A stretch of 64,000 bases of DNA, taken from assembly GCA_963696385.1 (NCBI GenBank), contig CAVOKF010000002.1, forward strand, positions 64,001 to 128,000, written 5' to 3'. Below the pieces are notes generated by a model. It ran no database searches and was not told where the DNA came from. It was given only the letters and a program-made list of their open reading frames with translations. This DNA comes from an uncultured delta proteobacterium (lineage in GTDB: Bacteria > Myxococcota_A > Polyangia > Polyangiales > Polyangiaceae). Positions within the stretch are counted from its first letter, which is position 1; every line of letters starts with the position of its first letter. The position numbers and the translations under genes are program-made. Shown piece after piece: positions 5,058-64,000 of the stretch.

Positions 5058-5170
5058 GAGCGAATAGTCGCTCCAAAGCGTATCGGCCAACGAAGAGACC
5101 GGGAAACCGCCGCAGTCACATAAGATCCCTTTGGGGCGCTCGTTCTCACTGAAACAGCGGACCGATTTGG
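5058..5170 (+). repeat. oriIS/dif-like repeat, copy 1
   Basis: GAGCGAATAG..CAAAG..TCGGCCAACGAAGAG..CAGTCACATAA-gatccc-TTTGGGGCGCT..GATTTGG. Confidence 0.85.
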
Positions 5171-6489: not shown

Positions 6490-6595
6490 GAGCGAGTAGG
6501 CGGCGCAAAGCTTGTCGGCCGACGAAGAGACGCGGAAACCGTCGCGGCCACATAAAAATCGCCTTTGGGGCGTTCAAAGCGCCGTCCCAATTGAG
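6490..6595 (+). repeat. oriIS/dif-like repeat, copy 2 (8-bp spacer)
   Basis: GAGCGAGTAG..GTCGGCCGACGAAGAG..CGGCCACATAA-aaatcgcc-TTTGGGGCGTT..CAATTGAG. Confidence 0.8.
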
Positions 6596-10008: not shown

Positions 10009-10131
10009 GAGCGAGTAGGCGTCGCAAAGCCTGCCGGTCGACGAAGAGCCGCGGAAGCCGCCGCGGAAACATATCGCGTCTTAATCGCGTCTTAGGAGCG
10101 TCCGTTGTCGCTGAAGCGGCGAAAGATTTGG
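10009..10131 (+). repeat. oriIS/dif-like repeat, copy 3 (11-bp duplication in core)
   Basis: CGGAAACATAT-cgcgtc-TTA ATCGCGTCTTA GGAGCGTCCGTTG..GATTTGG. Confidence 0.85.
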
Positions 10132-10974: not shown

Positions 10975-11330
10975 GGGGGCGCGGGTGCATGGCATCGCGG
11001 TCGCCGTCTCTCTCGCGACCCGCACCCGACGCACATGTTGAAGCGTTCGGGCAGTGCGTCGAGTTCTCTCTCGACCCGATGGTCGAGGGATTCACGCCCT
11101 TCGCCAACTTGGATGGCGGCTACGTCCTTGCTGAAATCCGATAAGGCGTTTTACGATGACTCGCCGGGCCTTCTTGGCTCGACCCCGTTGCACTCCTTAT
11201 CCGCACGTAAAGCACCTCAGCGGATTTCAACGACGGCAGGACGCGGTCCTGATTTGGCTGCTCGCAACGATAGCCCGAACGTCGCGATCGGAGCTGGCCG
11301 GCTCCACCCTTTCTTAGCTCGATCGTTCGC

Positions 11331-11493
11331 GGCGAGTAGTAAACCCAAAGCACGTCGGTCGACGAAGACCTGCGGGAAGCCACCGCGGTCACATATATGC
11401 AATAGGCGATTCTGCGACTGCGCCGGGTGACGCATGCGAGGAGCGCGGACGGGAGACGGCGCAGTTGCTCAATCGACCGGTTGGACGGAGCCG
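11331..11493 (+). repeat. oriIS/dif-like repeat, copy 4 (type B right flank)
   Basis: Left ~66 bp nearly identical to copy 5; right flank ATAGGCGATT..TTGCTCAATCG..TTGGACGGAGCCG matches copy 14. Confidence 0.85.
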
Positions 11494-11940
11494 GTGCGCG
11501 GCAGAGACCGGGCGCTTCCGGAGGCCGTCTTGGCGGGGCCGCTATGGGGAAAGAGGCCGTACGGGTTCGGTCCGCGGCTGCGGGCTGGCTGGTGGCGTTC
11601 GCGTGGGTAGCGCAGGCAGAGGCGGGCGCGCGCGCCGAGGGGGGCCGACCGCGGTCCCAACCGGCGAGAATGGGTCGACCGATCCGCGCGCCGAGTGGGT
11701 ACGCCGTCGCGAGCGCACACGTCGCCCCGGCCGCGCCGAGGGCACAGTTGGGCGTGGTTGCCGACGCTTCGTTGCGGTCACGCGGCCTCCGGCGGCGCGC
11801 GCGCGAGGGCGTGGGGATCGTCGAGGGGCCGACGCACGACGGCGAGTGCGCCGCAGGCGGGGCATCGACGCACGTCGATGCCGGTCAAGTGTCGCAGCAG
11901 CTCTTGCCAGGGCAGCGCGGCATCGGGCGCGCCCAATAGG

Positions 11941-12033
11941 GAGCGAGTAGTAAACCCAAAGCACGTCGGTCGACGAAGAGCTGCGGGAAGCCACCGCGGT
12001 CACATATCGCATCTTATGACGCGTCCGTTGCCA
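11941..12033 (+). repeat. oriIS/dif-like repeat, copy 5 (split by intron; remainder at 13974..13995)
   Basis: CGGTCACATAT-cgcatc-TTATGACGCGT CCGTTGCCA | intron | TTGAAAGTGCCATCCAATTGAG. Confidence 0.85.
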
Positions 12034-13973
12034 GTCGGGTAGGCCGGGGATGTTGTCTCCCCGGCCCCCCTTCGGATCCGGACGTGCGCAATTCACGCAT
12101 CCGGCTCTTCGGTCACGGGTTCGCTGCGCGCGGGAGAAATGGGTGAGCGATGCGAGGCGGCGGGAGCGGGTAGCGCTCCAGCAGAAGCCGCATTCGCTTC
12201 CAAGGCATATGGCGTCGTTGCGACCGGCGGTTGAGCCACCGGCGCCACAACGCAATAGTCTTGCGGCAGAAGAGCGCGATGGCGCGGAAATTCCCGGTGA
12301 TTCCGTAATATCCGTAGTGACCACGCAGCTTTTGCCCAAGTGCCTTCTGCTGCTCGCGGATGGCGTCGTGCCGGTGCTCCCTGCACCATTGCGCGACCCG
12401 CGACACCGCTCTCCGGAAGCGGTCTTTGGCTGTTTTGCGCATGACAATCCACTTGCCAGAGCGAGCTTTGCCCCAGTAGTGCGTGAAGCCGAGTAGGTCG
12501 AAGCTGCCAGGACCTCGGTCGCCGCCATCGACTTTCGATGAGCGACGGTCAGGGCGCTGAAACTCCACCAACCGCGTCTTCTCGGGATGCAGCGCCAGGC
12601 CGTACGCACCCAATCGCTTCGGCAGCACGTCCAGCACCTTGCGGGCATCCACTTCATGCGAAAACAAAAGCACTGCATCGTCCGCGTAGCGGACGAGCAG
12701 CGCCTTGCCCGAAAGCCTTGGTTTAACTTCGCGCTCAAACCAGACGTCGAGCACCTCGTGCAGGAAAATGTTCGCCAGAATCGGCGAAATCACCCCGCCC
12801 TGCGGTGTGCCCGTTTCCGGATACGCAATGGCTCCGTCTTCGAGCACGCCCGCATTCAACCACTTTCCGATGAGCCGCAGCAGCACTCCGTCGTGCACCC
12901 TGCGGCGTAGGACTTCCCGTAATTTCCCGTGGTCCAGGACGTCGAAGAACTTGCGTACGTCGACCTCGAAAACCCACCCGCCACCCATCATTACCGCTTG
13001 ATTCTGCAGGGTCTCGAGCGCTTGATGCGCCGAGCGCCCCGGCCGGAAGCCGTACGAGCAGTCCAGAAAGTCCTGCTCGTAGACCGCCTCCAGCACCATC
13101 GCGACCGCGCGCTGCAATACCTTATCTTCGAAGCTGGGAATGCCGAGCGGTCTCGTTTCCGAGCCGCTCCCCTTCGGGATATGGACTCGCCGCACCGGCG
13201 GTGCTCGGTACGTACCAGACTTCGCGCGTTCGAGAAGCGACTGCAGGTTGCCCTCCAGGTTTTCCGCATACTCTTGCGCGCTCTGCCCGTCTACGCCACG
13301 AGCCCCGTCCTTGCGTGTGCGTCGGTACGCTTCGCGGAGCCAGTCGGTATCGATGTGATGGGCAAGCGTTCGGAACGCCATATCGGGCGCGTCCTTCGCC
13401 AGCTTTCGAGTTTCGTTGAGATGGGAATTGAGTTCGGCGCCTCGGCCATCGTTCCCTCCAGCGGTTCCGTGTTTTCCGGTGCCGCCCTTTGCTCGGCGGG
13501 GTCCCTTGGGACGGTTCCCCCGCGTCGTCGCTCCTACTGCGGCACTCCGACTTCCCGTCGCCCATCGCGCTTGGCTTCGTTGCCTTCGCCGCGCACTACC
13601 GCCGCAATTCAACAGCCGGAGGCGCCGGGATATCCCAGGTTCCTGGACCGTCCTTTGCGTACATGCCCTGCTGTTCACCCCGGCAGAGTCGACGGGCCAG
13701 GCCTTCGGGCTCGCCCGACTTTTCGGCACGTCGATGTTGCCTTCCGCGTTTCAAAACGCGTCGGCCTCCGCGAAGAGACGGATTTCGAGGCTCTTTGCAC
13801 GGCCTGCACGCCCGCTGTGTACGCTTCGCAGCCGCGATTGCTCGCGAACCACGCAACACTCGCTTCCGGCTGGCGGCCCCGCCTTGGCCGGTCGGGAATT
13901 TCACCCGCGGACGGTTACGTGAGGTTTCCGCTCTTACATGTCTTCCTCCTCACCCAGGCTTCGCCTGGCGCAC
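12034..13973 (-). mobile_element. Group II intron, full length (probably bacterial class E)
   Basis: 5' GTGCG at 13973; domain V GAGCCGGATGCGTGAATTGCGCACGTCCGGATC; domain VI ending CCCGAC at 12034. Confidence 0.9.
12113..13449 (-). CDS. ltrA: Group II intron reverse transcriptase/maturase, no En domain; probable frameshift near 13410
   Basis: [28 protein letters not shown]. Natural start [15 protein letters not shown] (13449) is out of frame with KLAKDAP. Confidence 0.9.
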
Positions 13974-14591
13974 TTGAAAGTGCCATCCAATTGAGTGAAC
14001 GACGGGACCCGCATGCTTCCCGGCCTTCTCCTGCGGCATTTTGCCTTGGGTGCCGCCTCTCGGGAGGCGCGCAGCAGGCGCAAGCGGCGGGCATCCGCCT
14101 CCCGACGGGAGGCATCTCCATGCCCGGCACCGGAGCCACGCACAGGCATCCCTTTGATGCCGAGCATGGCTTGATGCCGAGCATGGCGAGGAGCCACCCG
14201 TTTGCGGCGGCGAGCACCGTCGAGACAATGCCGGGCACGGAAAAGGCCGTCTCTCCGCCCGGGCGCTGGCCGAAGGGCCAAGCCGTCAGGGTTGGGCACG
14301 CTGAAGAGCGTGCCTCCCGGGCCCCGAAGCCGCCCGCCGACGGCGGGCCTCTCCCCGTTCCCCCCTGAGCAGCGCGCAGCGCGGCTTGCCTCCGGCCCCG
14401 GCGGAGGCCGGGGGAAGGGCGACCGTGCCCTGCGTAGCCGAAGGCGAAGCATGGGAGCCCGCACAGGCGGCGGGCCGCCGAGCACGCGATTGGGGGAACT
14501 CGGCCGCCCGCAGTCGCCCGAAGCTGCCGTGAGGCAGCGTAGGGGGGCGAGGACGGACGCAAGGGGGCACCAGCACGCCTCGGCTCTGCGG

Positions 14592-37360: not shown

Positions 37361-37490
37361 CCAGGTGCGGACTTCCAGGCTGACGCTCAACGTCGCCGCC
37401 AGCGCAACGGCTCGTGGTCGGAAGCTCTCCGCGCTCCAGCGCGGGACACGACGAATCAGGTCTCAAACCTGCCGCGCAGCGGCTTCGTCC

Positions 37491-37537
37491 AAGATCCCTT
37501 TGGGGCGTCCGTTGTTACTCAGCGGCGACCGATTTGG
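37491..37537 (+). repeat. oriIS/dif-like repeat, copy 7 (right half only)
   Basis: AA-gatccc-TTTGGGGCGTCCGTTG..GATTTGG; homology begins at the spacer. Confidence 0.75.
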
Positions 37538-39534: not shown

Positions 39535-39658
39535 GAGCGAGTAGTAAGCCCAAAGTGCGTCGGTCGACGAAGAGCCGCGAAAGAGGGCGCGGAAACATAT
39601 CGCGTCTTAATCGCGTCTTAGGGGCGTTCGTTATCGCTGAATCGGCGAACCGATTTGG
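39535..39658 (+). repeat. oriIS/dif-like repeat, copy 8 (11-bp duplication in core)
   Basis: Full consensus with ATCGCGTCTTA x2. Confidence 0.9.
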
Positions 39659-39798: not shown

Positions 39799-39871
39799 AA
39801 GACGCGATATGTTTCCGCGCCCTCTTCCGCGGCTCTTCGTTGACCGATACCCTTTCGACTGGCTACTCGCC
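39799..39871 (-). repeat. oriIS/dif-like repeat, copy 9 (cut in core by IS4 end)
   Basis: Minus strand GGCGAGTAG..CGGAAACATATCGCGTCTT | CATAGG. Confidence 0.85.
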
Positions 39872-40396: not shown

Positions 40397-40506
40397 GGCG
40401 AGTAGTAAGCCCAAAGTGCGTCGGTCGACGAAGAGCCGCGGAAGCGGGCGCGGAAAAATATCGCGTCTTAGGGGCTTCCGTTGTCACCGAGCGGCGAAAG
40501 ATTTGG
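40397..40506 (+). repeat. oriIS/dif-like repeat, copy 11
   Basis: Full consensus; core CGGAAAAATAT-cgcgtc-TTAGGGGCTTC. Confidence 0.9.
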
Positions 40507-42575: not shown

Positions 42576-42687
42576 GGCGAGTAGTAAGCCCAAAGTGCGT
42601 CGGTCGACGAAGAGCCGCGGAAGAGGGCGCGGAAACATATCCCGTCTTAGGGGCGTTCGTTATCGCTGAATCGGCGAACCGATTTGG
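42576..42687 (+). repeat. oriIS/dif-like repeat, copy 12
   Basis: Full consensus; core CGGAAACATAT-cccgtc-TTAGGGGCGTT. Confidence 0.9.
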
Positions 42688-55286: not shown

Positions 55287-55449
55287 CGGCTCCGTCCAAG
55301 TGGACGATTGAGCAATTGCGCCGATACGCGCCTCGACGCTAATCGCACGCGTCACGGGCGCCGTCGCACAATCGCCTATTATTTATGTTACTGCGGCGGT
55401 TTTCCCGGTCTCTTCGTCGGCCGATGCGCTTTGAAGCCGCTATTCGCTC
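55287..55449 (-). repeat. oriIS/dif-like repeat, copy 14 (type B right flank)
   Basis: Plus strand TTATGTTACTG..GCGCTTTGAAGCCGCTATTCGCTC; flank homologous to copy 4. Confidence 0.85.
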
Positions 55450-62812: not shown

Positions 62813-62926
62813 GGCGAGTAGTAAGCCCAAAGTGCGTCGGTCGACGAAGAGCCCGCGGAGGCGGGCGCGGAAACATATCGCGTCTTAGGGGCTTCCGTTG
62901 TCACCGAGCCGCGAACCCGATTTGAG
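62813..62926 (+). repeat. oriIS/dif-like repeat, copy 15
   Basis: Full consensus, about 200 bp upstream of the ISCR transposase. Confidence 0.9.
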
Positions 62927-63123: not shown

Positions 63124-63405
63124 GTGGCTGCTCTCGCACCCGCGTACGTTCCCCGTCGCCCGACCGAAACGGTCTTGTACAGGTTGGTGCGCGAGAATCT
63201 GGAATCGTTTCTCGCACACGCGCGCGAGCACTACGAGGGAGGCCTGCCCCATTACGTGGAAGCGGAACTGCGTGCTTATTTGGATTGTGGAGTGTTTGCT
63301 TGCGGATTCACACGTTGCCACTGCGACTCATGCGGCCACGACTTGCTTGTGGCTTTTTCCTGTAAAGGCAGATCTCTCTGCCCCAGTTGCTGCGGCAGGC
63401 GTATG
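63124..63405 (+). pseudogene. ISCR/IS91 rolling-circle transposase N-terminus (Zn-binding domain), interrupted
   Basis: YVPRRPTETVLYRLV..YLDCG..CDSCGHDLLVAFSCKGRSLCPSCCGRRM. Confidence 0.9.
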
Positions 63406-63432
63406 AAGAACGCTTCATGGTGCGTCACCTCG

Positions 63433-64000
63433 CTATGTCCTTGGAATGACGAGAGGGAGTTGGCCGGCGGTTGGTCCTGCACCCGCCCGATCGCGTCTGG
63501 CTCGCACGCGCGTCGTGACTCGCTTGGCGACCTCGTTCTCGAGATCGCTCCTTGCGAAGATCCAAGGGCCGTTTGCGAGGGGGTGGCATGCGGGCACCTC
63601 GTTGGCCTGAGCGGCACGGCGCAGCGTTCTGGTGGATACGTCCATCAGCCCGGCCGCCTCCTCGAGGGATAACCAGCCGTCGGCGCGACGACGCTCGATC
63701 GAGTGCGCGGGGATCCCTCTTGTATGGCGAAGCGAAGCAACCAATGCACGCGTGTAGTTTGCACCGTTCGGCGTTCGGATCCCGGCCTTGCCGAGCCACG
63801 CAGCGATTTCGTGATCGGGAAAGATTCGCGCGAGGACGCGCACGGCTTCGACGACATCCGACGATGTCGTTCGGCCACGCTCCCCGCTGCGGCGCTTCGG
63901 AACTAGCAAATCCGTATGCGCGCCTCCCTTCCAGTGCACGGTGAGCACGATTTCGGAGCGCGCTTCATCGACGTCTGCCCAGATTTGTTCAATGACGGCA
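63433..64000 (-). CDS. Large serine recombinase, C-terminal part (runs off window)
   Basis: IVLTVHWKGGAHT, DHEIAAWL..G.RT..G..YT, terminal HTH. Confidence 0.7.
   Translation of the reverse strand, partial: AVIEQIWADVDEARSEIVLTVHWKGGAHTDLLVPKRRSGERGRTTSSDVVEAVRVLARIFPDHEIAAWLGKAGIRTPNGANYTRALVASLRHTRGIPAHSIERRRADGWLSLEEAAGLMDVSTRTLRRAAQANEVPACHPLANGPWIFARSDLENEVAKRVTTRVRARRDRAGAGPTAGQLPLVIPRT

Follow-up and report, generated by a model that had tools for sequence, protein, structure and literature searches.

The question raised by this locus was whether a dif-like sequence that recurs across a mobile-element island serves as a crossover site for the DNA on either side of it. The window under study is a stretch of 64,000 nucleotides (G000:C2:64001-128000; positions without a contig name are those of the window) from the 6.9 Mb, 66% GC, eight-contig genome G000 of a soil bacterium, and it holds integrase-core fragments, IS66 pieces, toxin–antitoxin pairs and a group II intron. 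The first-pass annotation had pointed to two copies of a repeat, copy 4 (11332-11396) and copy 5 (11943-12007), which run together and then part inside an 11-6-11 core. We confirmed that 64 of the 65 bases are equal before they diverge. The quoted cores were all found in place (copy 1 from 5113; copy 5; the copy-14 arm at 55383-55393), the type B flank that follows copy 4 recurs after copy 14 and at seven genome places in all, and copy 7 is a half only, with the spacer and right half at 37493-37536. One contig of public run X1 spans 11339-11971 with three differences, a weak check on the assembly because X1 may be the source sample of G000. The last 162 bases of C2 overlap the start of C7.

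The core was compared with the dif and xerCD of the host, as had been proposed. A loose search of G000 returned one good dif candidate, C3:50569-50596. When scored with a weight matrix made from 16 single-copy dif candidates of relatives, excluding the host and its closest relative, this site reached 36.9 bits and stood at the top of 13.9 million positions. A related dif pattern was present in 12 of 31 genus genomes (once in 11, twice in one), with no match for the reversed control; two of the 12, the unpublished G148 and G010, also contributed two of the 16 training sites. The GC skew is negative beyond the first 100 kb of C3, which is weakly compatible with a terminus, the contigs being unordered. 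XerC and XerD are both encoded, at C3:320339-321220 (309.5 bits, cut-off 335) and C3:185808-186665 (313.9 bits, cut-off 329.6); each gene falls just below the model cut-off and is the best match for one model. With the same matrix, 43 of the 110 genome positions scoring at least 9 bits fell within the repeat, and 30 of its 46 full-length copies carried a site of at least 11.9 bits. The core is a real dif-like 11-6-11 site matching the host dif. In the commonest form its XerC arm agrees with that of the host at 10 of 11 positions and its XerD arm at 6 of 11, the reverse of the earlier statement that the XerC-side arm was the divergent one. A chromosomal dif is a single-copy site at the terminus; the repeat has about 100 copies, and no unit was found near the host dif, the sole copy on C3 lying 433 kb away. 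An integron attC-like site was rejected, as seven folds gave no stable structure (z +0.14 to -1.5). Two lone dif-like sites lie outside the repeat, one at 11134-11161 (forward strand, 23.5 bits, genome rank 3) and one at C4:1148126.

We found that the core sits inside a 110-bp unit that is a transposon end, a connection missing from the first-pass annotation. Complete units on the forward strand of the window are copy 1 (5060-5169, core 5113-5140), copy 3 (10011-10130, in whose core 11 bp are tandemly duplicated), a further copy with a duplicated core (39537-39657), and those at 40398-40505, 42577-42686 and 62814-62924; copy 2 (6492-6593, forward) has a truncated right arm. The core duplications resemble two 8-bp IS4 target copies with three bases between them, and are possibly IS4 excision footprints; at least four full copies show them. 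The unit at 62814-62924 faces the 5' end of a long Y2 transposase gene that is interrupted; the N-terminal part of this gene, with the zinc-binding domain (PF14319), lies at 63124-63672 on the forward strand, and the gene's own origin end is found beyond the window, at C2:131606. Profile searches of G000 gave 104 matches at E < 0.01, 80 of them below 1e-8; the matches are clustered, the median distance between neighbours being 2.6 kb. A different, near-invariant 100-bp repeat occurs in tandem at C6:48508-48703 and is dispersed at more than 20 further places over all contigs.

At all four long Y2 transposase loci of G000 a unit follows the stop codon by about 65 bp, with the unit start, or origin end, outermost, and a unit likewise stands behind the transposase at locus L003 of a Polyangiaceae MAG. 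The long transposase scored above cut-off for PF04986 and PF14319, as an HUH Y2 enzyme with a zinc-binding domain. Its best NCBIfam match was to ISCR clade Ia and fell below cut-off; the scores stayed under the cut-offs of NF052416 (282.8 of 925) and NF033538 (97 of 125). Its nearest named relative, in a peat Polyangiaceae MAG, was 92% identical. On its origin side, an ISCR-like (IS91-family) HUH element ends in this unit, which has spread for the most part as a mini copy with sharp ends. In G000 the base before the outer end is a purine in 67 of 71 cases, as is the base after the inner end in 58 of 61; beside the origin end the tetranucleotide target of IS91 type was not found, the purine alone being conserved there (also at 32 of 34 outer ends in a relative, G110). 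The inner end behaves like a terminator with a weak hairpin only. No common upstream end was recognized among the transposase loci when a terIS with a subterminal palindrome was sought. In a DNA search of 41 genomes the repeat was found in G000 and G003 only, besides one 26-bp match. At L153 (G000:C4:18500-38400), where the transposase lies at C4:36433-38136, and at L003 the long transposase comes after a small gene and traG, near trbB, trbE, trbG and trbI, and the stretch from traG to the origin is 85% identical in a peat MAG. A conjugative element was rejected as the general autonomous form, as traG and trb genes adjoin the transposase at C4 and L003 only and in none of 20 upstream stretches elsewhere.

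The sequences bordering the units were then consistent with more than simple insertion. Outer flanks are unique save for two duplicated blocks, and 21 outer and 11 inner ends in G000 interrupt sequences that are intact elsewhere (the 11 being 15 rows less four transposase-linked copies that match one another). For the outer ends, no remainder of the interrupted sequence was found within 60 kb, and a genome-wide search gave only two ambiguous cases; for the 11 inner ends, too, no cut counterpart of the missing half was found. Joining outer flanks (72 ends) to inner flanks (68 ends) in pairs never rebuilt an empty site, nor did the flanks of the G003 copies at four loci, and a simple MITE insertion was rejected on this ground. 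The missing target halves and empty sites therefore indicate that the units are not plain insertions but seams left after deletion or exchange. Missing target halves are also expected from adjacent deletions made by the transposase. A 4.15-kb duplicate of 99.4% identity (G000:C6:1-4146 and C7:2156-6305) has its right border exactly at a unit inner end.

The divergence between copies 4 and 5, which had been read as flank exchange, has a different origin. Copy 4 (11332-11396, forward) runs from the origin-side end, of the type found downstream of all four long Y2 transposase loci, through the XerD-like arm (11386-11396) and lacks its right half. The type B flank that follows (11397-11942, reverse strand) is a remnant of a second IS91-family element, of the kind with an integrase and a short Y2 transposase; its downstream end adjoins the XerD-like arm, its other side is cut by copy 5, and it retains the last 52 codons of the transposase (11778-11936, reverse; C-terminal match to the IS91 transposase of G110 with 54% identity over 41 aa, E 7e-9). 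The full form is found in G110, where an element of 2.3–2.5 kb, coding for a short IS91 transposase and a tyrosine recombinase of integron-like type, lies precisely between the spacer and the XerC arm; 7 of 34 units run into it, and in four instances the arm continues on its other side. The complete example at L159 (G110:C3:2728949-2731470) is a clean model of an IS91 element that targets Xer-like sites. Of seven type B ends in G000, five follow a unit XerD arm, one a remnant of the arm and one a stretch that is AT-rich and arm-like, although the genome contains the five-base target word 1310 times. No intact copy of the second element was found in G000. Judged by sequence, the type B flank is an insertion of a second IS91 lineage, of the same kind of element as in G110. 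Copy 14 (55383-55447, reverse) consists of a left half that runs into the type B end. In copy 7 (37482-37536, forward), likewise cited as evidence of exchange, positions 37482-37492 are the end of the second element on its integrase side, and the spacer, XerC-like arm and right arm follow directly; this copy is the opposite boundary of an insertion of this kind. Tyrosine recombinases within IS91 elements have been described already (10.1101/542381), and at 29 loci in other genomes we saw only scattered hints of integrase-carrying IS91 elements that target Xer sites.

Other units are split by IS4, IS1634, IS110 and two types of intron. IS4 has 14 of its 30 ends at the spacer, as in the reverse-strand left half at 39799-39871, which passes into an IS4-type end. 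Copy 5 (11943-12033, forward) comprises the origin end, the XerD-like arm (11997-12007), spacer (12008-12013), XerC-like arm (12014-12024) and the start of the right arm, and is interrupted by a group II intron with a reverse transcriptase/maturase (12034-13973, reverse; Rfam RF00029 and RF02005, TIGR04416 above cut-off), other copies of which share the target site; the rest of the right arm, up to the sharp inner end, follows at 13974-13993 on the forward strand. Two types of group II intron home to fixed unit sites, antisense in the right arm and sense in the left arm (window 12034-13973; G000:C6:22223, C6:105656, C7:1370175 and C7:1434066). An IS110 element with an RNA-guided transposase occupies a unit inner end at G000:C6:114406-116193 (L202), with four further full copies and one partial copy at the same unit position. 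The downstream flank common to six copies, a candidate mobile cassette, was rejected as such and is IS110 inserted at the inner end.

We extended the comparison of core and host to related elements, searching 301 genomes and retrieving 40 long-type loci. Many of these showed by eye a similar origin end with a dif-like site 20–60 bp inward, in either orientation. With the generic matrix 8 of 41 long-type loci scored at least 7 bits, so the dif mimic is common, not universal. Own-host matching was assessed in 15 genomes of the phylum for which a dif candidate was available; G054, which had none, and G365, where it was unclear, were excluded. The best site behind the transposase shared 15.3 of 22 positions with the dif of its own host and 13.3 with those of other hosts (permutation p 5e-5, a value that overstates the case because the 15 genomes were chosen after inspection and some are kin). 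The XerC arm alone scored 9.0 of 11 against the own host and 7.5 against the others. Eleven of the 15 genomes beat all 100 shuffles and four failed against their own dif; the 6-bp spacing between the arms was retained in 11 of 15. The unusual XerC arms of hosts G231 and G032 were each matched at 10 of 11 positions by their elements. This copying of the host dif across relatives suggests that the element borrows the XerCD recombinase of its host. Furthermore, matches to Xer-like recombinases were found beside 17 of 29 short-type loci and in none of 20 upstream stretches of long-type loci in other genomes.

Several relatives carry short copies of their own. G331 and G286 have several with sharp inner ends, and G110 has its own 100-bp unit; over 179 kb, 32 of its 34 outer ends come after a purine and all 30 inner ends come before one. 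The 42 pattern matches in the G110 arrays, a few of them likely to be chance, lie at least 0.8 Mb from its dif candidate, and 27 of 31 neighbours are co-oriented. An orientation set by the replichore was rejected, as arrays on one side of the dif candidate face both ways. One exact head-to-tail dimer of the unit is suggestive of rolling-circle transposition in vivo.

Breakpoints within the units were located using a copying model with 36 haplotypes from 43 full copies, omitting three with core deletions. The model gave 22–32 switch points, and the spacer held 17–22% of the switch-point weight, compared to 7% for uniform simulated crossovers (p 0.001–0.003, the haplotypes not being independent). 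The concentration at the spacer that had been predicted thus stood as an enrichment of about threefold, with the remaining 80% or so of the weight spread across both arms. Duplicated flanking blocks in G000 end at an outer end, an inner end or an IS4 insertion, and none ends cleanly at the spacer; duplicated cargo blocks are bounded there only when an IS4 copy is present. No excised circle was seen among the contigs of the public runs, where the joints fit other genomic copies. The proposed Xer crossover at the core keeps its host-matched site, the presence of XerC and XerD and the spacer enrichment, and loses the flank evidence originally cited for it. The support for recombination is indirect: elements track their hosts, the spacing of the arms is kept, switch points are enriched at the spacer, target halves have been lost, and short-type but not long-type loci often have a recombinase beside them.

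Based on these data, we think it probable that the HUH transposase seeds the units and that host XerCD resolves between them. The position behind the transposase, the sharp ends, the copy number, the match to the host dif, the tracking of the host XerC arm across genomes and the insertion of other elements at the core are all established. A long ISCR-like element of the IS91 family would shed its oriIS end as a 110-bp mini element that terminates at a fixed inner site, the transposase making both ends, mobilizing the mini element in trans and copying it locally. The unit would bear a selected imitation of the host dif, a borrowed resolution site at which XerCD may bind the core and resolve directly repeated parent and daughter copies. 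Such resolution would delete or release the intervening DNA, so that the surviving units would be hybrids marking seams between unrelated DNA; in relatives with their own tyrosine recombinase, the borrowed site would be superfluous. Exchange by Xer would be limited because the spacers differ between unit types. At the present locus copy 4 was presumably hit first by the integrase-carrying element, the near-identical copy 5 would then have been joined 546 bp on with loss of the remainder of that element, and the intron may have entered copy 5 last. A broader form, in which two enzymes capture genes without an integrase of their own, is possible but doubtful: HUH transposition would scatter host-matched Xer sites, XerCD would excise and reinsert the DNA between them to give integron-like arrays, and a second IS91 lineage with its own integrase would have evolved to land in the sites.

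The main alternative, rather unlikely in our estimate, is that HUH transposition acted alone. The unit would then be just a transposon end, the seams would come from one-ended transposition and adjacent deletions, the mosaics from homologous exchange and insertion scars, and XerC would bind the mimic without recombination, whether in an architectural role, to repress an outward promoter or as a guide. Duplicated blocks that terminate at the outer or inner end agree with this, as do switch points lying mostly outside the spacer and the C6/C7 duplicate, in which the upstream 4 kb are common yet the left arms differ, the difference lying inside the left arm. An earlier test on seven genomes (strict origin-motif filter, 14 loci kept, 7 used) points the same way, as the XerC arm alone tracked the host (XerD arm p 0.19). 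However, two arms held at 6 bp in 11 of 15 genomes, switch points enriched at the spacer, and the lack of an own recombinase at long-type loci when many short-type loci have one argue against this alternative.

The first-pass view, that the cores mark pdif-like Xer cassettes with XerCD crossovers as the chief route of flank exchange, now appears improbable. It accounts for the host-matched core, the spacer enrichment, the arrays with a median spacing of 2.6 kb and the co-orientation of neighbours in G110 (27 of 31). However, type B is an insertion, cargo blocks are never bounded at the spacer, and the sharp-ended conserved flanks, about 50 and 30 bp long, require the transposase. Neighbouring units in G000 do not alternate (33 same, 25 opposite), and we found neither an inverted-pair arrangement nor a module repeated at several loci with sites at its borders. 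Finally, a chance likeness of an AT-rich patch such as a promoter, conceivable with an AT-rich matrix in a 66% GC genome and with many long-type loci lacking such a site, is very improbable, and is largely refuted by the own-host test, as base composition cannot produce tracking that includes the odd arms of G231 and G032.

ISCR elements are known movers of resistance genes, and pdif modules raise the question of how extra Xer sites come to be placed around genes. The preferred reading, seeding by the HUH transposase and resolution by XerCD, would link these two separate mobility systems. Through an end whose XerC arm is adapted to each host, the transposon would provide a seeding route for Xer sites, and whether rolling-circle transposons require a resolution step becomes directly testable; should XerCD be inactive on the unit, it would still be an abundant mini element, its likeness to the host dif then lacking an explanation. 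IMEXs such as the CTX and TLC phages also imitate dif, depend on host XerCD and integrate at dif. The present element resembles them in its imitation of dif and its probable reliance on XerCD, and differs in that no unit lies near the host dif, the only copy on that contig being 433 kb off.

IS91 starts at its right-side origin end and often overruns its terminator (PMC13181058), and IS91 and ISCR elements, as described there, share with the present one an HUH Y2 transposase with a zinc domain, a downstream origin end, a structure without terminal inverted repeats and the capture of neighbouring DNA; the transposase here differs in falling below the model cut-offs. In the literature searched, which left most subscription journals outside, we found no description of a dif-like site in an IS91 or ISCR origin end. 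IS801 has fixed right-end miniatures of 229, 360 and 679 nt (PMC3189936), which are likewise short origin-end pieces of the IS91 family with fixed internal stops and a transposase acting in trans. In contrast to IS801, the mini form here outnumbers the gene by about 25:1, its junctions show a purine and not a tetranucleotide, and the unit includes a host-matched Xer site; the word 'Xer' does not occur in the main text of PMC3189936. The IS1202/ISAba32 subgroup also homes to Xer sites (10.1101/2022.12.17.520857), as does the integrase-carrying IS91 element here, but with a DDE enzyme and 5–6 bp outside the XerC arm, whereas the HUH element lies between spacer and arm. The pdif or xrs modules of Acinetobacter are similar in having clustered dif-like sites away from the terminus and between accessory genes (PMC11705084; PMC12907356). 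Paired xrs there are reported not to have excised cassettes, even as direct repeats (PMC11705084), which speaks against resolution by XerCD in the present case. The Acinetobacter sites are mostly inverted pairs with a divergent XerC arm, whereas the XerC arm of the present unit is kept, its sites are often co-oriented, and each lies inside a transposon end that would explain its seeding.
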